From NCBI GenBank assembly GCA_963663965.2, contig CAXXFK010000030.1:263771-327770 (forward strand): a stretch of 64,000 bases of DNA, given 5' to 3'. Shown in pieces: positions 2,598 to 11,836 of the stretch. This stretch comes from Sedimentisphaerales bacterium (lineage in GTDB: Bacteria; Planctomycetota; Phycisphaerae; Sedimentisphaerales; SM23-30). Numbering within the stretch: position 1 is the first letter of the stretch; each line of letters starts with the position of its first letter. A model generated the notes under the pieces. It saw only the letters and a program-made list of their open reading frames with translations, was not told the origin of the DNA and searched no databases. Made by a program: the position numbers and the translations under genes.

Positions 2598-5500
2598 TTA
2601 TGACATGTCAGCCAGCAGGGCAATTTCCTGTTGAGTCAATACCCGGTCATAAATCCGGACATCATCGATTTTGCCGCCGATGGCGCGTCCGCCGCCAATG
2701 CGATCACCCAAGGTCACTGGCAAATCAACATTCATCTGCATGGCGCCGTCTAAAGCCGTTTGTTGCGCGGAAGAGGGTTCCTGGCCATTGACATAAACAT
2801 GGACTTTACGGTCGCCCAGATCATCATAGGTCATCACCAGATGGTACCATTGGCCCGCCTGGGGGGTAATGGTGGTTTCGGTCAGTGCGTACGTTCCGCT
2901 GCCGTTGACAAAACCGGTAATATGACCCGATTGGGTTCCCCAGGTCTGAACACTCCAGAGATGACTGCTCAGATTTCGCTGGCCGGCGATATGAAATGAT
3001 TGAGTCAATGAAATAGCGTTGGCATTGAACCAGAACGCCACGGTAAAGGCCGGATAGGTAAGTCCGCTGCCTGCGCCGCAATTGGCCAGGTCGTTAATAC
3101 CGTCAAGCACCAGACCGCCGTTGCCGATTTTGTAATTGCCCAGGAGATGGCTGATCGCGGCCCCGTTTTCCAGCAGGGCGTCCCGGTTTCCAACGCTGTC
3201 ATTGCCATTCTCGTCAAATTTCCAATACGCGATGGGTTTGGGATTGGATGATTCAGATAACCAGCGCAGCGCCAGCTCACTGAAATCATAAAGATCGATA
3301 CGGGTATCGTAGAAGAAAATATTGCCGACTGATGGATTCAGATTGTTTTCCTGGACCAGCCACTCATCCGTTATCGAAGGTAAATCTCCGGCATCGATCT
3401 GTCCGCTGTCGTTCAGGTCGCCAGTCAGGCGGGCCGGTTGCGGCACAACGGCGAGAATGGATAACCCGCCGTTGCGGTTACTGACCAGCAGCCGGGAGTC
3501 CGCCTGGTTGATCCGGGTGCTTTCCGCCGGCAGTGCGGTGCGGGCATGGATGATGGGGTTGGCTGGATCGGTAATATCAAAGATCGTTACGCCTCCCTGG
3601 CTGTTGGCCAGGCAGAGCCGTTGATTAATTACCGCCAGACTGACCGCCCGCCCGGGCAGATCATATTGGCCGATCAAAGCGGGGGCGGCAGGGTTATTCA
3701 AACTGAATATGGCCAGTCCGCCAGTAGCCTGAGCCGCGTACAGGGTGTTGCCCGCAATGGCCAGACTATAGGCCGTATCGGCAGTGTCGACCTGGCTGAC
3801 TGGAGACAGGCTTTCAATCAGAACGGTCTGAATACCCATGCCGGCGCTGGCGAGATAGACATAGCCGTTATAGAGGGCAAGATCGAGAATCCGCGCGGGA
3901 CTGTGCCAGGAACTGATCAAGTCCGGATTGTCGTTATCGTTGGTCAAACGATAAAGTGTTCGCTCATCGGCGGCCAGCAAAGTGGCCGCGTTGGCGGCTA
4001 CCTGATCGATCTGGGTTCCACTGTCAAAATGACCTTTTAACACTGGATGGGCCGGATCCGCGATCGAAGCCACCCGCAGACCGTCCAGGCCGTTGGCAAT
4101 ATGAACCTTGTCGTCAACCACCGCGAATTCACTGGCCTGGCCCAGGGTATTGAGCATACTGATCTGACCGGGCCTCAATACTTCGCTTAAGTCAACCACC
4201 TGCAATCCTTCATCCCCTTCCGCGGTTAAAACACGTTCCAGACCGTTGACGGGTGTCAGGCCGGCGGGACTGGCATGAAACGTCCATGGATTACTGACTG
4301 CCGGAAGTTCCGGATTGGCCAGATCGACCAGGCAGACACCCAGTTTTTGCCGGGCCACTGCCAGCCGGTTCGTATCGACTGCCAGAAGATCGACTGCGCC
4401 ATCGGTGCCGGGAATGATCCTGACCGAGACGGGTTCGTCCGGGTTGGTGATATTGACCAGCTCAATACCGGCCGCGGTAGCCACACAGGCAAAATCACCC
4501 GATAACGCCATCGCCCGGCCGGTTCCTCCCTGCAGGCGGCACTGACCGGTCACGGTCAGTGTGCTTCCGTTGTATTGGCCGGTCATAAAATCGTCCAGAT
4601 AGTTGGTTACATAAACGGTATCGCCATTCACGGCCATTGCCCTGGGCAGTTCGGTGAGTCCGACCTGACCGGTCAGTTTTGGCGTCCAGGTAGATAACTC
4701 GACCATCTTCACGCCGGTTTCCTGACAGAGCAGCCAGGCGCGATCGCCGGTTATCGTTACTTTTGTTACCGGCTCCGTCGGGGTGTATTGCCGGTCCGGC
4801 TGAAGCGAGGAAACTGAGATGGCATATTGGATCAGGCCGCCAGAGCCGTCGGCGACACAAAGATGATCGCCATGCCAGGCAACGGACTGGGCATAGAAAT
4901 CAGTATTATATCCGGCGAGAGGTTCAATGGGTGTAAAGTTGGTCAGATCAATCAGCGCCACACCCCGCTTGCCCAGCGCGACCGCAGCACGATCACCTTG
5001 AATCGCAATATCCAGGATGGTATCATCCAGAGGCATTTGACGTAACAGAACCGGACCGGCGGGATCACCCATCTGCAGCCGGCATAGCATATGGCCCTGT
5101 CCAACCAGCACGTCTGATCCATATTGCGCCAGGCAGTTCGAGGCGCTGCCGATACCGCCCACGGCCCTCAGGGTGTAGGCGGCTTCGCCAATGGTCTGCG
5201 CCTGAAGATCTACATACGTAACCGGGGTATCCGGATCATCGCTGCCGACGGCCAGTCTGGCATAGGGGTAATCTCCGGCGCGTGTGGTGTTCAATTGAAC
5301 AGTTAAATTGCGCAGGGTATTTTCGGTTCCATCGGAAAGAGTGCCGCGGATACTGGAAAATGCCGCCTGACACAGGGTGCCATCGCTATGACTGGTGACC
5401 GCCAGGCCGATCAGGACGCTCGTACTCATACTGATGGATTCGGATCCCACCGGTGTCCAGCTGGAGCCGTTGGATGAATAATAAGCGCTGAAGGTGCTGC

Positions 5501-6932
5501 CCTGGCGGACCAGGCGAACCCACGTGGGGGCCGTGAGACTGCCGATCGTGGTACTGGTTGAGGCGCCTTCGGTCGAGACCCGCCGCTGGAATGAAACACC
5601 GTTACCCGGCGTGACGCACATGAAGGCGTGTTTGGCCTCATTGGAAGTGCCATTGCGGATCATGACCCCGGCTTTGGCCCAGGTATTGGTATTGGCGACT
5701 GAATTAACCTTTGCGATAATCTCGCCATCGCCATTCAGCGATTGATAGGCGTAATGGAACTCATCCTCTTCCCCCCAGATATCTTCCCCGGAACCTGAAA
5801 TGGTTATGGTGCCGTTGCCATAGGTTGTACTGCCGGCAGCGCCCACTTCACCAATATCACGGTTTGACCATGGGTTGGTTCTGGTTGGGATGGTTAAGGG
5901 CAGCGTCGGGGCGCCGATCAGCGAATAATGATCTTTATCCAGGCCGGTCAGATTCAGGGAGGTAATGGTCAGGTTTTTGTCGCCCAGATTCTGCAGGGCA
6001 ACGGTTGCCTGGCGGGTCTGGTTTTCGGGCACATCTTTAAACTGAATCATTTGAGGAGACACGGCAATATCTGAAAATGCCGGAGACAATGTGGTAAAAG
6101 TCTGGATATCATTCGCCCAGATATCTTTGGTGGAGGAGACGACCCGGAACCGATAATAATAAGTCGTTACCGGGGTCAGGCCGGTCAGGGTATGCGACAA
6201 AGTTCCTATTCCCTGAATACCCAACGATACCGCATGATCCCAGCCGGCGGGACTAGTGCCGCCCTGGTTGTCATTGCCCCAGTACAGATACACCAGCGGA
6301 TTTTCGCCATCGGTACCGGTAACCTGACCGTTGAGTACGGCGCTGGTTTCCGTCACAGTACCGGCCGGCAAATTAGAAATGCCCAGTCCGCTGGGAACAT
6401 ATTCGATCCGGACATTGAGAAACTTGCCATTGGCCGGGGTCTGTACCCAGGGCGTGCGGCCTTTGGTAATATTGAAAGTGGCCACATTCAGATTGTTGGA
6501 ATCGTTGCCATTGGAGCATTCCATCCAGAGTTTATAATTGCCATCCGGCAGGGTGGTCCCATCGGGCAAGCTGGTATTGTACATGGTGCAATCCCAGCTG
6601 ATGACATATTCCCGGTATCCGCTTTGCGTAGCGCCCGTCCGGTCAGTGCGGTCATCGGTTCTATAAGTGGGATTATTGGAATACCAGGTATAACAACTGC
6701 CATAACGGGTATTGGCCCAGAGCGCAACCTTGCCATTGCCGGTGCCGAGTGTGCAGACCCGATTGTTGCTGGTATCGGTCAACCAGACCGCCTGGACATA
6801 ACTGGTCCCGTAACGTCCTCCCGCATCCGTTGGCGTAAACCGAACGGTGAAGGTGTCGGCTTGAAGCGTCTGGCCGACAGTCACAGTCAATAGCAGGATA
6901 CCAAAAATGGTTCGGGCTGTTGCGTTATTCAT
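2598..6932 (-). CDS. Secreted multidomain protein: DUF2271-like N-terminus, FN3/Ig-like, ConA-like (DUF1349-like), LVIVD-repeat propellers, dockerin-like, LamG
   Basis: Signal peptide; YVQAVWLTD..TL..W..W..TGAT..WD..LPDGNYKLWME; LTGLTPVTTYYYR; GDGEIIAKV..WAKAGVMIR..WVRLVRQG; repeated GL.(I/V)VD.S.P..P; GDLNDSGQIDAGDL; AYWKFDE..GQWYHLVMTYD..GKIDDVRIYDRVLT. Confidence 0.75.
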   Translation of the reverse strand: MNNATARTIFGILLLTVTVGQTLQADTFTVRFTPTDAGGRYGTSYVQAVWLTDTSNNRVCTLGTGNGKVALWANTRYGSCYTWYSNNPTYRTDDRTDRTGATQSGYREYVISWDCTMYNTSLPDGTTLPDGNYKLWMECSNGNDSNNLNVATFNITKGRTPWVQTPANGKFLNVRIEYVPSGLGISNLPAGTVTETSAVLNGQVTGTDGENPLVYLYWGNDNQGGTSPAGWDHAVSLGIQGIGTLSHTLTGLTPVTTYYYRFRVVSSTKDIWANDIQTFTTLSPAFSDIAVSPQMIQFKDVPENQTRQATVALQNLGDKNLTITSLNLTGLDKDHYSLIGAPTLPLTIPTRTNPWSNRDIGEVGAAGSTTYGNGTITISGSGEDIWGEEDEFHYAYQSLNGDGEIIAKVNSVANTNTWAKAGVMIRNGTSNEAKHAFMCVTPGNGVSFQRRVSTEGASTSTTIGSLTAPTWVRLVRQGSTFSAYYSSNGSSWTPVGSESISMSTSVLIGLAVTSHSDGTLCQAAFSSIRGTLSDGTENTLRNLTVQLNTTRAGDYPYARLAVGSDDPDTPVTYVDLQAQTIGEAAYTLRAVGGIGSASNCLAQYGSDVLVGQGHMLCRLQMGDPAGPVLLRQMPLDDTILDIAIQGDRAAVALGKRGVALIDLTNFTPIEPLAGYNTDFYAQSVAWHGDHLCVADGSGGLIQYAISVSSLQPDRQYTPTEPVTKVTITGDRAWLLCQETGVKMVELSTWTPKLTGQVGLTELPRAMAVNGDTVYVTNYLDDFMTGQYNGSTLTVTGQCRLQGGTGRAMALSGDFACVATAAGIELVNITNPDEPVSVRIIPGTDGAVDLLAVDTNRLAVARQKLGVCLVDLANPELPAVSNPWTFHASPAGLTPVNGLERVLTAEGDEGLQVVDLSEVLRPGQISMLNTLGQASEFAVVDDKVHIANGLDGLRVASIADPAHPVLKGHFDSGTQIDQVAANAATLLAADERTLYRLTNDNDNPDLISSWHSPARILDLALYNGYVYLASAGMGIQTVLIESLSPVSQVDTADTAYSLAIAGNTLYAAQATGGLAIFSLNNPAAPALIGQYDLPGRAVSLAVINQRLCLANSQGGVTIFDITDPANPIIHARTALPAESTRINQADSRLLVSNRNGGLSILAVVPQPARLTGDLNDSGQIDAGDLPSITDEWLVQENNLNPSVGNIFFYDTRIDLYDFSELALRWLSESSNPKPIAYWKFDENGNDSVGNRDALLENGAAISHLLGNYKIGNGGLVLDGINDLANCGAGSGLTYPAFTVAFWFNANAISLTQSFHIAGQRNLSSHLWSVQTWGTQSGHITGFVNGSGTYALTETTITPQAGQWYHLVMTYDDLGDRKVHVYVNGQEPSSAQQTALDGAMQMNVDLPVTLGDRIGGGRAIGGKIDDVRIYDRVLTQQEIALLADMS

Positions 6933-6953
6933 GATACGGTTCCTTTATAATTG

Positions 6954-7436
6954 TTAATGGGACAGGGACTGGTTTTGATGGGTAAAGTAATGAACTCGGG
7001 AATGAATGCATTGCACAATCTGAGGCAATGCTTTTTTCAATTTAGACGACAACTCCAGGCCCAGATCGATTTGAGCCGGCTGAATACCGACGATCAGTAC
7101 GCGTGGGCGACGTTCCGGATCCAGCATTTGAATGGCCGCCGGTAAACCCAGGTCATGCAGGGAATGCCCATCTGGAACCAGCGCGTCGCCGCCGTCAAAA
7201 TAATAAACACTGCCGGGCGGGCCATCGGCACAAACCGCGTCAATGGCAATGATCTGAGCATAGTTTTCCAGAATATCCAGCGAGCCCAGCACGGACGTGC
7301 CGATCTCGTACAGATCGGTATCGACCGGCGGATCCTGCATCATCTTGCGAATGATGTGTACTCCCACGCCGTCATCCTGCATCAGCAGATTGCCCAGGCC
7401 GAGAATCGCTATTCTGGTTGGAGCTGGTTTATTCAT
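6954..7436 (-). CDS. Hydrogenase maturation protease (HyaD/HybD family)
   Basis: ILGLGNLLMQDDGVGVH, IDAV, HSLHD, GIQP motifs; start set to the ATG at 7436 (MNKP), 11 bp after the large-subunit stop. Confidence 0.93.
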   Translation of the reverse strand: MNKPAPTRIAILGLGNLLMQDDGVGVHIIRKMMQDPPVDTDLYEIGTSVLGSLDILENYAQIIAIDAVCADGPPGSVYYFDGGDALVPDGHSLHDLGLPAAIQMLDPERRPRVLIVGIQPAQIDLGLELSSKLKKALPQIVQCIHSRVHYFTHQNQSLSH

Positions 7437-7447
7437 AAACAAGTAAC

Positions 7448-8869
7448 TCAACGAATTCTGACAAGTTTGGCTTCCTGACCCGGCCGGATCACGTGTGTGG
7501 CGCAATCCAGGCAGGGATCGAATGAATGAATGATACGCATCACTTCGATCGGCATATCCGGATTTTCGATGGGCGTGCCCAGCAGGGCTTCTTCCAGCGG
7601 GCCGGGAACACCGCCGCTATCGCGGGGTGAACAGTTCCAGGTCGTTGGGGAGATCACCTGATAGGCGGCCAGTTTGCCATTTTCGATTTTCAACCAGTGG
7701 CCCAGCGCGCCGCGCGGCGCTTCGGTCAATCCGCTGGCTGTGGCGCTATCGGGCAGGACGGGTTCGTTATAAACAGCGCCGGCCGGGTCCAGCTGGTTAA
7801 CCCAGATTCGCAGCGCCTCGGCCACCAGTAATGCTTCATGGGCCCGGGCCAGATGCCGGTCCATAGTGGAAATGCCGTTTTGATAATCGCCCCGAACCCA
7901 CATGCGCGCCAGGGGTCCGACTTCGTAGGGCTTGCCAAGATAGCGGGGTGATTTGACCCAGGAATAAGCGTCCCGTTTGGGGCTTTGAGGCTGGGTATAA
8001 CTTTCCGAAGGATGGATCGGATTCGCATCCGCAAACCAGGAATAAGTCACCTGTTCGGTGATCTGGGCGGCATTGAAAGGTTGAACGTTTCTTGAACCAT
8101 TCGCGATACTCCCGGCCGGTATCAACCGCTGGCCCGGCGTTGATTCTTCAAATACGCCGTATGCCAGCAGGTTTTTGCATCCGGCTCCGATCGAGAAGTA
8201 ATCGCGATAGATCGTACCCAGTAACTCGACATCAGGAATATAAACATCCCGCACAAACGGGATCAATTCGTCCAGAAAACGATTGTACTCATCAATACGT
8301 TCCTGGCGTGGTGTACAGGTGAATCCGCCCGGAATAAAGGCGTTGGGATGCGGCGCCCGACCGCCAAAAATGGCCGTCATCTGATCGGCCTTGCGGCGCA
8401 TGGTGACCGCCTGAAGATAATGGCTGACCAGCCGGTCGGTCTGGGTCTTATCCAGACGGCGATCGATATCCCAGTCTGCCTGCCAGGGCGGCATGGCGGG
8501 ACCCGCGACATAATCAGGCACGGACAGCAGATAAAAGTGCAGAATATGCGACTCGACAAAATTGGCGCCGTTGACCAGGTTGCGCATCAAACGGGCATTG
8601 TTTGGAATATTGACGCCGAAGGCATTGTCCAGATTCAAAACCGACGCCATGCCATGCGCGACCGGGCAAACCCCGCAGATACGCTGGGTGATGTGCTGCG
8701 CGTCGCGCGGATCGCGGCCGATCAGCAGCTTCTCAAAGCCCCGGAACAGTCCCCCGGTCGCCTTGGCATCGACTACCTGCTGAACACCGTTAACGGTGTC
8801 GATTTCGATTTGGATATTAAGATGCCCTTCGATACGGGTAACGGGATCGAATGCCGCGGTAATTTTCAT
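7448..8869 (-). CDS. [NiFe]-hydrogenase large subunit (group 1, 1a-like)
   Basis: DPVTRIEGH, L1 QRICGVCPVAH, EAPRGALGHW, L2 SFDPCLDCATH and a cleavable C-terminal extension; no Sec codon. Confidence 0.96.
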   Translation of the reverse strand: MKITAAFDPVTRIEGHLNIQIEIDTVNGVQQVVDAKATGGLFRGFEKLLIGRDPRDAQHITQRICGVCPVAHGMASVLNLDNAFGVNIPNNARLMRNLVNGANFVESHILHFYLLSVPDYVAGPAMPPWQADWDIDRRLDKTQTDRLVSHYLQAVTMRRKADQMTAIFGGRAPHPNAFIPGGFTCTPRQERIDEYNRFLDELIPFVRDVYIPDVELLGTIYRDYFSIGAGCKNLLAYGVFEESTPGQRLIPAGSIANGSRNVQPFNAAQITEQVTYSWFADANPIHPSESYTQPQSPKRDAYSWVKSPRYLGKPYEVGPLARMWVRGDYQNGISTMDRHLARAHEALLVAEALRIWVNQLDPAGAVYNEPVLPDSATASGLTEAPRGALGHWLKIENGKLAAYQVISPTTWNCSPRDSGGVPGPLEEALLGTPIENPDMPIEVMRIIHSFDPCLDCATHVIRPGQEAKLVRIR

Positions 8870-8945
8870 GACTTTCTCCTGAAAGAAAGGATCTGGTTAA
8901 ATTCGAATGGTTTATTTTTATGCGGGGAACAAACTCGACAAATAC

Positions 8946-9917
8946 TTACAGTTCATAGAACGATCCGCCCGGGAAATCCGGCTCGACGCAGCCCAGGCAT
9001 AATCCGTTGCTATCGACGCACCAGTTGACTGCGCCGCCTTCGCCTTTGTTCCAGCGGCGGGTCGGGCAATCCGCGAAGGTGTTTGGGCCGCGACACCCCA
9101 GCGGTTCCAGACATAAACCATCCTGACCGAAAGTGGTGGCAAGACCAGTGCCTTGTTTGTTGGGATTGCGCGGACAGTGTTCGTGGATATTGCGAACATT
9201 GAGATTGTCATCCTTGTTGCCATAGATTTCCACTGGTCGCAGATAGGGGTCTAATTGCGGAATATTGCCCAGAATCAACTGGACGACCGCCCAGGCCACC
9301 CAATCGGGATGCGCCGGGCAGCCCGGAATATTGATGACCGGCTTATCTGGGTAGAGGGCATGGACCGCTTGATGGCAGGGGATGACGCCGGTTGGGTTGG
9401 TTTCTTTGGGATCGGGGCCGGACATGGGAATGCCGCCATAGCTGGCACAGGTGCCTACGCAGACCACCGCCGCGGCATCCTTGGCCAGATCCTTGATGGC
9501 GTCATGATAAGTGATTTCCTGTCCGTTAGCCGTGGCGATCAGGCAGGCTCGACCGTCAAATGCCATCGGAACGCCGCCTTCCAGCACCAGAACAAATCCA
9601 CCTTTACGGGCCGCTTCAAAGTTCATGGTCCAGGCGGTTTCACCGGCTGATGACATAACTACCGTATGATAGGCAAGATTGACATGCTGGATCAATACTT
9701 GATCCACTGTCAGGTGCCCAACCGGATCGACGTTGTCGAAAAGATTTAAAAATGAGATCGAGTCGCCCTGACAACCGCTGCCATGCAGCCAGATCAGGGT
9801 GGGGGCGCCGTCACTGGCCAGGGCCGCTTCCAATTGACGTACGGTGGCCTGGGTTAATCCCAGCGAAGCCGCCGCTGCTCCGCAAAACTGTAAAAATTGT
9901 CGCCTGGAGATCTGCAT
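8946..9917 (-). CDS. [NiFe]-hydrogenase small subunit, Tat-exported
   Basis: SRRQFL Tat signal; GCQGD, GTCASYGG, IPGCPAHP, IHEHCPR, CLEPLGCRGP, NWCVDSNGLCLGC; no C-terminal TM anchor. Confidence 0.95.
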   Translation of the reverse strand: MQISRRQFLQFCGAAAASLGLTQATVRQLEAALASDGAPTLIWLHGSGCQGDSISFLNLFDNVDPVGHLTVDQVLIQHVNLAYHTVVMSSAGETAWTMNFEAARKGGFVLVLEGGVPMAFDGRACLIATANGQEITYHDAIKDLAKDAAAVVCVGTCASYGGIPMSGPDPKETNPTGVIPCHQAVHALYPDKPVINIPGCPAHPDWVAWAVVQLILGNIPQLDPYLRPVEIYGNKDDNLNVRNIHEHCPRNPNKQGTGLATTFGQDGLCLEPLGCRGPNTFADCPTRRWNKGEGGAVNWCVDSNGLCLGCVEPDFPGGSFYEL

Positions 9918-10114
9918 AAGTGTTCCTTTACTGTTGATAGTTAGGGCGGTTATTCTCGGATCAGAATGGTAAGGGAAACAAACGGAAACAGGATTATGTA
10001 GGGTTAAAACTGAAACGTTCAGGAATACCTGTGATAATTTTTAATGGATCGGCTCAAAGGGTGGATGACATCATCAGTTGCGGTCCATCCTGATAAAAAT
10101 CTTTCAACCGGTTC

Positions 10115-11140
10115 TTACTCTTTAGATGTCAAGGTTCGGATTGGATTTATAACGGGAAAATGGCTGGAAGCAATCGATTCAAAGTCGGGAGTGATAAAAA
10201 ACGCTTCCACATCCTGGATTTGTTCGCAAAGCGCCAGGCCGTCGTTCGGTCCCATAACGAAAAAGGCGGTTGCCAGGGCGTCAGCGGATTCTGCGTCCGG
10301 CCCAATCACGGTAACTGAAATGCAGCCCTCCACTGGCCGGCCCGTTCTGGGATCGATAATATGGTGATAGCGTTTTCCATCGATCTCGACCATTTTCTCA
10401 TAATCACCTGAGGTGACAATGGCTTCGTTTGTGACGGCAACCGTGCCCAGCGGTTTGCCTCTGGCGTCACGGGGATTATTAATGCTGATCCGCCAGGGAT
10501 CGCAGCCATCAGGAGTGCTGGCCAGCAGGTCACCGCCGGCGTTGATCAGAAAATAATCAAAACCTTCCCTGCGAAGGGTTGCCGCCGCGGCATCGACGAT
10601 TGTGCCTTTGGCAATGCCACCCAGATCAATCCGCATGCCTTTTTCTTGCAGGTATGCCGTGTTTTCGGAATGGTTTAATTTAAGTTTTTTATAGTCAACC
10701 AAGGGCAGGGCCTGGTCGATTTGTTCATCGGTAGGGATTACCGGTAATACCGGTCGTAACTCGTAAAGTTTTCCAACGGCCGAGAAAGTAATGTCAAAGG
10801 CGCCGTGCGACATGTCCGCTATCTCTTGCGATTTTTGCAGGATCGACATCAATTCAGGCCCGATTTTAACCGGTGCGATACCCGCCTGACGATTCACCAG
10901 GCTGGTCTGGCTTTCCGGAACCCAGGAACTGATGGTTGAAATGCTTTTCTCCATGGTTGCCACGGCATGTTCCATTGCTGTATACGCGTTGGGTTGGCGA
11001 GATGCATCGCATTTGACTTTGATGGAAACATCCGTTCCCATCATACCGCCGTGGAATTCACAGACAATCAATTCCTGCGCAGTATCGTGCTGTGCATTAC
11101 ATCCCAGAAAAAAAATGAAAGGTACAATCAGATATCTCAT
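10115..11140 (-). CDS. apbE: FAD:protein FMN transferase (ApbE), lipoprotein
   Basis: MMGT, GAFDIT, DLGGIAKG, INAGGD, TSGDYE, HHIIDPRTG, ADALATA; lipobox FLGC after the ATG at 11140. Confidence 0.96.
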   Translation of the reverse strand: MRYLIVPFIFFLGCNAQHDTAQELIVCEFHGGMMGTDVSIKVKCDASRQPNAYTAMEHAVATMEKSISTISSWVPESQTSLVNRQAGIAPVKIGPELMSILQKSQEIADMSHGAFDITFSAVGKLYELRPVLPVIPTDEQIDQALPLVDYKKLKLNHSENTAYLQEKGMRIDLGGIAKGTIVDAAAATLRREGFDYFLINAGGDLLASTPDGCDPWRISINNPRDARGKPLGTVAVTNEAIVTSGDYEKMVEIDGKRYHHIIDPRTGRPVEGCISVTVIGPDAESADALATAFFVMGPNDGLALCEQIQDVEAFFITPDFESIASSHFPVINPIRTLTSKE

Positions 11141-11764: not shown

Positions 11765-11836
11765 GCGGGTGTAGCTCAGTGGTAGAGCGTCACGTTGCCA
11801 ACGTGAATGTCGTGAGTTCGAGCCTCATCACCCGCT
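11765..11836 (+). tRNA. tRNA-Gly(GCC)
   Basis: Acceptor GCGGGTG/CACCCGC, D-arm GCTCAGTGGTAGAGC, anticodon arm TCACG-TTGCCAA-CGTGA, GTTCGAG T-loop; CCA not encoded. Confidence 0.96.

Follow-up and report, generated by a model that had tools for sequence, protein, structure and literature searches.

The 64,000-nucleotide window analysed here (forward-strand positions 263,771 to 327,770 of contig CAXXFK010000030.1, GenBank assembly GCA_963663965.2, from a Sedimentisphaerales bacterium) carries a five-gene unit in which a [NiFe]-hydrogenase is followed by a large exported repeat protein whose N-terminal head resembles DUF2271 and bears a motif for covalent attachment of flavin mononucleotide (FMN). 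As judged by sequence comparison, this is a real conserved module, in which a distinct group-1a-like hydrogenase clade is joined to a DUF2271-like head on a variable stalk, and it occurs in two phyla. All five genes lie on the minus strand. The first, apbE (11140-10115), has a lipoprotein start, MRYLIVPFIFFLGC, and matches PF02424 with 282 bits; its start is taken at 11140, while the caller of open reading frames (ORFs) runs the frame out to 11233. It is followed by the hydrogenase small subunit (9917-8946; NiFe_hyd_SSU_C and a twin-arginine translocation (Tat) signal by Pfam and NCBIfam), the large subunit (8869-7448; NiFeSe_Hases by the same databases), a hydrogenase maturation protease of the HycI type (7436-6954; PF01750 and TIGR00072, both above cut-off), and the big gene (6932-2598), which encodes a 1444-residue protein predicted to be exported by the general secretory (Sec) pathway. 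The intergenic gaps from apbE to the big gene are 197, 76, 11, and 21 nucleotides. An intrinsic terminator-like hairpin with a 13-pair stem and a T tail closes the unit (2549-2519, minus strand; fold z -3.96, with 0 of 200 shuffles equally stable). An earlier note on this DNA had described five co-oriented genes, a 21-nucleotide gap between protease and big gene, and a closing terminator, all of which the coordinates and the hairpin bear out.

The small subunit begins with the Tat signal SRRQFL and carries the proximal-cluster motif C49-Q-G-D52, with Asp in place of the second Cys, followed by a four-Cys medial site and a His-ligated distal site. The large subunit has the L1 motif RICGVC, the L2 motif DPCLDC, and a short C-terminal extension. 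The CxxC motifs of L1 and L2, the Tat signal, the three-cluster small subunit, and the four-Cys medial site are all features of group 1a, and the nearest solved structures together with the NCBIfam scores lead us to call the enzyme group-1a-like. For both subunits the nearest solved structures are [NiFeSe] enzymes of Desulfovibrio and Desulfomicrobium, namely HysAB of Desulfovibrio vulgaris and Desulfomicrobium baculatum (PDB 2WPN, 5JSH, 1CC1, and 4KL8). Like HysAB, the window enzyme is a Tat-exported, soluble dimer by prediction, with a four-Cys medial site and a unit free of cytochrome b. Unlike HysAB, it has CQGD where HysAB has CTGC, it is followed by a protein with a flavinylation motif, and its L2 reads Cys in an open frame, so that the selenocysteine that defines HysAB is absent; both subunits also score under the NCBIfam HysA and HysB cut-offs. 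Modelled as a single chain, the small subunit gave a structure of low confidence (predicted local distance difference test (pLDDT) score 56.7), which was not used.

The two features expected of membrane-bound group 1 enzymes, a hydrophobic small-subunit tail and a cytochrome gene in the unit, are missing. The best 19-residue Kyte-Doolittle mean of the small subunit is only 1.32, and no cytochrome b, HybA/B, or multihaem ORF occurs among the ORFs of the cluster by ORF list and Pfam; PepSY and DUF4198 were likewise absent from the ORFs of the cluster, to which that search was confined. The absence of these cytochrome and HybA/B genes and of a transmembrane anchor on the small subunit, as previously reported, therefore agrees with the ORF, CxxCH, and Kyte-Doolittle checks. 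The missing cytochrome b is less telling than the earlier note implies: soluble group 1a enzymes commonly lack one, and multihaem cytochromes are encoded elsewhere in this genome. Among small-subunit homologs at E≤1e-90, CQGD is found in 108 of 108, the four-Cys medial pattern in 107, and a hydrophobic tail in none. Their named sources are Phycisphaerae, Anaerohalosphaeraceae, Planctomycetota, and one Sumerlaeota, and a Sedimentisphaerales genome is among the titled loci of the clade. At five clade loci (L040, L043, L052, L053, and L143) the large subunit stops exactly at the L2 His, without a C-terminal extension; it is not followed by a protease gene but adjoins the head gene directly. They appear to represent natural protease-independent maturation in a group-1a-like enzyme.

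The big protein starts with a signal peptide (residues 1-25, read from the sequence) and continues with the DUF2271-like head (6393..6860, minus strand, residues 25-180), in which the motif T99-G-A-T102 (6638-6627, minus strand) is predicted to receive FMN on T102. This is the sole [ST]GA[ST] word of the protein, and no CxxCH occurs anywhere in its sequence. Because 0.38 such words are expected from the composition of the protein, the motif by itself is weak evidence. PF10029 (DUF2271) went undetected in a scan of the entire protein, and residues 25-180 alone scored 19.2 bits (E 0.001; 18.2 bits in a second scan), below the gathering cut-off of 27.3. The head is thus filed here as DUF2271-like, a divergent relative and no formal member of the family. 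The assignment in the earlier note is carried by homology through relatives and by a motif in register, but not by the head's own score. PF10029 was matched by 27 of 30 scanned head relatives, 17 of them over the cut-off, and hydrogenase-linked heads over the cut-off include P0005 (27.7 bits), L051 (37.0), and L271 (39.3). In hhalign, a 26-head profile aligned to an above-cut-off DUF2271 with 99.6% probability over 138 columns, with TGAT in register. The nearest ESM Atlas clusters of the head are also DUF2271 (scores 0.83-0.85), which serves as a lead only.

Column counts were taken from the best 150 of 156 phmmer matches to the head. Thr occupies the T102 column in 91% of these homologs, and the full [ST]GA[ST] motif is present in 103 of the 150, with variants such as TSAT and TAAT still ending in the final Thr. 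In another protein, a DUF2271 domain is flavinylated at such a motif and a Thr-to-Ala change abolishes the modification, as reported in the main text of Meheust et al. (2021; PMC8238504). An AlphaFold model of the head is a beta-sandwich (pLDDT 75.9) with the motif in a low-confidence loop; it gave no Foldseek match at E≤0.001, and the best VIA match (Z 6.8) was among common beta-sandwich folds only. No plasmid match to the head was found, and the mean net charges of small subunit (-10) and head (+1) are uninformative. Six of the 30 scanned heads, all more distant, carry a type IX secretion tail, and surface display of this domain would therefore have a parallel in other phyla. Elsewhere, an RTGAT head occurs as a fusion to DUF386 (YhcH/YjgK/YiaL) at two loci that have no hydrogenase close by (L005:10365-11429 and L158:6693-7805). 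Other planctomycetes have DUF2271-like heads on Ig/TIG/He_PIG stalks of up to about 2100 residues (L206:8293-14793, L207:6550-8808, L203:1509-3419, and L204:5977-11268); two of these lie inside apbE clusters, and some of the heads read MGAT or LGAT.

Behind the head, the big protein continues with an FN3-like domain and an Ig-like domain of the choice-of-anchor D/ASH type with a DUF1349 ConA-like insert (5178..6392), an LVIVD-repeat region (3438..5165; PF08309, 64.7 bits) that probably forms two beta-propellers, and a dockerin-like segment with a LamG domain (2601..3425), all on the minus strand. The earlier domain list stands in part: LVIVD and LamG exceed their Pfam cut-offs and DUF1349 does so in a scan of the fragment (35.7 against 32.4), but the FN3/Ig matches are sub-threshold, as is the dockerin-like call (16 bits against 22.9). 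When the protein is compared with 12 linked proteins, about 440 to 1660 residues long, the head is present in all, the FN3-like domain in 10 (38-54% identity among those compared), and the Ig domain in 11. Each remaining part, be it propellers, ConA-like insert, dockerin-like segment, or LamG domain, is found in a subset of these proteins. Because these four modules are lost or swapped among relatives, they would form a stalk or sorting part outside the core. The adhesin-like or glycan-binding part proposed earlier thus varies between relatives and lies outside what is conserved. The dockerin-like/LamG tail is common to many other secreted proteins of the genome and looks like a general sorting or anchoring tag; with a home-made hidden Markov model (HMM), the dockerin-like segment was found in about 250 ORFs. 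One of these encodes a nine-haem secreted cytochrome (G000:C7:147844-150027, G000 being the genome of the window) with a dockerin-like C-terminus resembling that of the big protein, and is a candidate onward partner.

Conservation of the linkage was followed outward from the hydrogenase. In an order sample of 251 genomes, 62 had a small-subunit match at 1e-40, from which eight genomes besides G000 stood apart, with small-subunit identities of 57-70% and spread over three families. At all eight of these loci the head gene directly follows the protease or large subunit and reads TGAT, while 0 of 5 next-tier loci have a head. A GTDB scan for the hydrogenase, from which the best 80 of 558 loci were viewed, contained four CQGD loci, all with a head; one had already been counted, which leaves three new genomes. 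Of the remaining 76 loci, some of them cut by contig ends, only L055 has a DUF2271 gene. In a sample of 75 genomes from the phylum of locus L065 (titled candidate division BRC1), two matched, and one of these, G919, has apbE, small subunit (CQGD), large subunit (DPCLDC), protease, and head protein in the identical five-gene order. The G919 head protein is 863 residues long and combines an above-cut-off DUF2271 domain, the motif DGLSGAT, and LVIVD repeats. Altogether, the search from the hydrogenase led to 12 other genomes, and in 12 of 12 the next gene has the head, 11 with TGAT and one with SGAT. The neighbourhood search for which the earlier note had called thus shows a conserved linkage of hydrogenase and head, with the acceptor Thr retained and the five-gene order recurring in a second phylum. 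This count excludes a broken second copy in G373, with apbE and small-subunit fragments and no large subunit (L044:11529-12435); another decayed copy, in G427, has a frameshifted large subunit (L042:1644-2812).

Most head genes start between -14 and +48 nucleotides from the end of the preceding gene, and a four-nucleotide overlap is frequent. In metagenomes, 15 of 15 head loci follow hydrogenase genes (14 a large subunit, one only a protease at a contig edge); since these loci were seeded with the RTGAT motif and include near-duplicates, they test adjacency only. Counted from the head, 12 of the 251 order genomes have one, in a single copy each, and nine of these are hydrogenase loci; 10 of the 12 had supplied the search alignment, and this circular count is kept apart. 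Across the phylum, the clade was found only in G000 among 401 genomes. There, the head was absent from 20 of 20 other planctomycete hydrogenase loci (20 of 23 viewed) and hydrogenase from 20 of 20 other DUF2271 loci (20 of 42 viewed). In a quick tree of 90 large subunits, which omits G919 and split or truncated large subunits, the 21 head-linked rows form one clade with a Shimodaira-Hasegawa-like approximate likelihood ratio test (SH-aLRT) support of 98; its sister is L065, the BRC1 enzyme, while L055 falls outside as a separate head association.

Such a tree would also be expected if a secreted repeat protein had landed behind the hydrogenase once and been inherited without any coupling to it, the single clade pointing to a single origin, and the roughly 250 dockerin-like ORFs of the genome make such proteins common neighbours. 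We regard this hitch-hiking as very improbable. The tight or overlapping junctions are kept across three families and a second phylum amid flanking genes that all differ, and the junction has been re-formed straight onto the large subunit where the protease was lost. Moreover, L055 is a second, separate association, and the head is single-copy in each genome.

The position of apbE is less constant. Genes for ApbE number three in G000, and each of the 12 other clade genomes has one or more. The window ApbE is 48-54% identical to three linked ApbEs and 27-37% to the remaining paralogs, and these four form their own clade (SH-aLRT 99). Their genes adjoin the small subunit (G000 and G423), adjoin the head gene (G345), or follow hypA-hypB (G318); in G318 no overlap joins the two contig ends, which leaves an apbE-hydS adjacency unproven. 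The apbE remnant of G373 has 60% identity over 53 residues. By pairwise BLAST, the G919 ApbE is closer to a linked ApbE (42%, 257 bits) than to a housekeeping one (38%, 183 bits), a modest margin. The presence of apbE beside the operon, emphasized in the earlier note, is therefore true of the window and of two of 12 others, but is the minority state and not the rule. The invariant unit is hydrogenase plus head. The head has what an ApbE substrate should have, a conserved [S/T]GA[S/T] in an exported domain with ApbE encoded in the genome, and would be the only evident substrate because no [ST]GA[ST] occurs in the aligned clade hydrogenase subunits (18 small, 8 large). Separately, G000 and several genomes of the same order encode an ApbE fused behind a large membrane domain of about 840-880 residues (G000:C15:293713-296358).

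Related hydrogenases show what else can occupy the slot of the head gene. At 12 of the 76 other loci, the gene that follows the large subunit or protease is cytochrome b-like, three of the 12 being confirmed as PF01292 (Ni_hydr_CYTB). A tetrahaem cytochrome c lies within 2.6 kb in seven (one confirmed as c554-type), and a multihaem cytochrome c is next in two. In three more, a head with a single CxxCH on a stalk of Ig, BACON, PKD, or other repeats comes next. Two of these heads are choice-of-anchor V domains, which would make that domain a carrier of c-type haem. These mono-haem proteins, directly after related hydrogenases at L056:11564-14248, L060:11928-12923, and L075:11987-14770, appear to mirror the window protein, with haem in place of flavin. 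At seven loci (L090, L103, L104, L113, L114, L120, and L055) the slot holds an FGE-sulfatase-like domain, on an Ig-type stalk in six; mostly with Ig/cadherin repeats, these genes lie between large subunit and protease and belong to a Lentisphaerae/planctomycete hydrogenase lineage.

Taken together, these data slightly favour a reading in which covalent FMN on T102, held on a variable repeat stalk, is the electron partner of the hydrogenase. By sequence and family match, the group-1a-like enzyme is matured in the cytoplasm and exported through Tat as a soluble dimer. The big protein would leave through Sec, and the lipoprotein ApbE very probably places FMN on T102 of the head. That FMN would then, with reasonable likelihood, exchange electrons in either direction with the distal cluster of the small subunit, filling the role that cytochrome b or c has in relatives. 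More tentatively, the Ig/propeller/LamG stalk may keep the flavin off its anchor, in the periplasm or at the cell surface. Where the electrons go from there is equally tentative; they might pass to a partner encoded elsewhere, such as multihaem cytochromes or the FMN subunits of Rnf/Nqr, or to an external acceptor. G000 offers as onward candidates two FMN_bind proteins in Nqr-/Rnf-like clusters (names from sequence reading), several multihaem proteins, and a split NrfH/NrfA-like locus. It also has hypD, a second [NiFe] enzyme, and FeFe enzymes. Of the two directions, H2 oxidation is likelier, since the potentials of covalent FMN sites are as a rule positive of the H2/H+ couple; the four-Cys medial cluster keeps H2 evolution open.

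Several observations weigh against FMN on T102 as the electron partner. The score of the head is under the Pfam cut-off, and among close heads P0003 and P0006 read TAAT and P0015 reads TSAT. Three of the 12 head-bearing order genomes have no adjacent hydrogenase, one head following apbE and two being the DUF386 fusions. Intact apbE is directly upstream in only two of 12 other genomes and not in the remaining 10, one of which has a contig end there. The clade represents one origin, to which L055 adds one separate association, and the counts show the persistence of loci that are kin, not independent events. A single FMN at the tip of a stalk has no evident onward wire, and the multihaem cytochromes of G000 could serve in trans. 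The slot holds FGE-like domains, which carry no obvious cofactor, in another lineage; the LVIVD protein encoded upstream of the nearest sister enzyme lacks a head; and at many related loci a partner gene is missing altogether.

These last points would fit a big protein that only tethers or positions the hydrogenase, with electrons passing to cytochromes in trans and FMN, if present, serving a side task. The partner of Desulfovibrio HysAB is cytochrome c3, which offers an analogy, and multihaem genes are found elsewhere in the genome. The head-less LVIVD protein beside the sister enzyme and the FGE-like proteins with Ig repeats in the slot of another lineage point the same way, as does the FN3-like domain, which is as conserved as the head. 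Against a mere scaffold, every clade locus retains the head and its Thr, which is true of no other module: propeller, ConA-like, dockerin-like, and LamG modules are lost or swapped. A distinct ApbE clade also accompanies the system. In addition, the genome of the head-less sister is the only one of five without an ApbE match (completeness not given). A scaffold alone is thus judged unlikely, though it is the strongest of the rivals.

A flavin that serves as a protective or reactivating relay, buffering a few electrons so as to hold the enzyme in its reduced state or dispose of O2 and other oxidants, with no tie to energy metabolism, would give the Asp of the proximal cluster, present in 108 of 108 clade members, a role. 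An Asp-ligated proximal cluster underlies the O2 insensitivity of group 1h enzymes, according to PMC11023054, which gives the cluster ligation of groups 1a and 1h. The equivalence of the Asp position to that of group 1h is, however, putative, and the Asp also occurs in L062 and L102, which lie outside the clade and have no head. A buffer would also need no stalk of up to 1600 residues, and this role is improbable.

Still less probable is the reverse use of the system, in which the stalk would dock onto a reduced surface or partner cell, FMN gather electrons, and the hydrogenase make H2, much like the extracellular microbially influenced corrosion (MIC) hydrogenase of methanogens. An anchorless, soluble Tat enzyme with a four-Cys medial site like that of bidirectional group 1a enzymes would suit it, as would an adhesin-like stalk, and the MIC hydrogenase is a precedent (PMC12667266). 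Working against it, no sign was seen that the enzyme crosses the outer membrane, and the FeFe enzymes of the genome are other candidates for H2 evolution. The potentials of covalent FMN are also probably too positive.

The comparison with known systems places the FMN reading among established parts. The ApbE/DUF2271 clusters of the PepSY-like kind, as presented in the main text of PMC8238504, share with the window ApbE and a DUF2271-type domain with [S/T]GA[S/T]. Unlike these, the window unit has no PepSY or DUF4198 gene, its domain tips a repeat protein of 440-1660 residues among the linked forms, and its enzyme is a hydrogenase. The same text describes swaps of flavin and cytochrome in reductases and an alcohol oxidase, as between Listeria FrdA and Shewanella FccA, where a flavinylated domain stands in the place for which relatives use a cytochrome. 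Whereas those swaps use FMN_bind, the window would use DUF2271 on a separate, long-stalked protein and with a hydrogenase. The MIC hydrogenase FohAB of Methanococcus maripaludis (PMC12667266, PMC6181927, and PMC11452385) is also a Tat-secreted, soluble [NiFe] enzyme with a proposed glycan-mediated anchor, a likeness drawn from description. FohAB is archaeal, however, and its anchoring is proposed to run through the small-subunit C-terminus, which is short in the window enzyme. The word "flavin" is absent from the available text of PMC12667266.

Flavinylation in other contexts is treated in PMC12727194 and PMC11323493. The main text of PMC8238504 contains no word beginning with "hydrogenase", although its large supplementary cluster tables may list such loci, and "hydrogen" is absent from the text, as distinct from the supplements, of bioRxiv 10.1101/2024.03.13.584918. 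Full-text searches, with thinner coverage of Phycisphaerae hydrogenases and subscription papers, found no literature linking a [NiFe]-hydrogenase to ApbE or DUF2271. The window would thus unite known parts and a known principle on an enzyme class for which we did not find a description in the literature searched.

For many environmental group 1 hydrogenases without a cytochrome gene the electron partner is unknown, and this locus offers a specific, testable candidate that applies to a clade of at least 108 protein clusters. If FMN on T102 is indeed the partner, a hydrogenase would be wired through a post-translationally attached flavin and not through cytochrome, quinone, or ferredoxin. ApbE flavinylation, already associated with reductases, Rnf/Nqr, and iron uptake, would then reach H2 metabolism as well, and DUF2271, whose redox partner is mostly unknown, would gain a defined enzyme. 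Were the stalk located at the surface, it would give the fermentative Phycisphaerae that live in sediments and digesters an H2-linked route to external electron exchange. It is a rather unlikely extension that the protein is a surface arm whose FMN tip links the turnover of H2 with minerals, humic matter, or other cells as partners, as one case of a general stalk design with interchangeable heads. In that design, which we likewise consider doubtful, the heads on stalks of group-1a-like hydrogenases would be flavinylated DUF2271, mono-haem choice-of-anchor V, and FGE-like domains.

Around the unit, genes for a methyl-accepting chemotaxis protein (MCP)-like protein and a STAS protein occupy positions 8-2157 of the window, downstream of the terminator. 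A tie of these genes to H2 sensing was considered and dropped, as the terminator lies between and such genes are absent beside the related loci viewed. Recent horizontal arrival of the unit as an island is unsupported by GC content, which is 0.50-0.57 inside and about 0.50 outside. A tRNA-Gly gene (window positions 11765-11836) lies upstream of apbE, past an AT-rich spacer.

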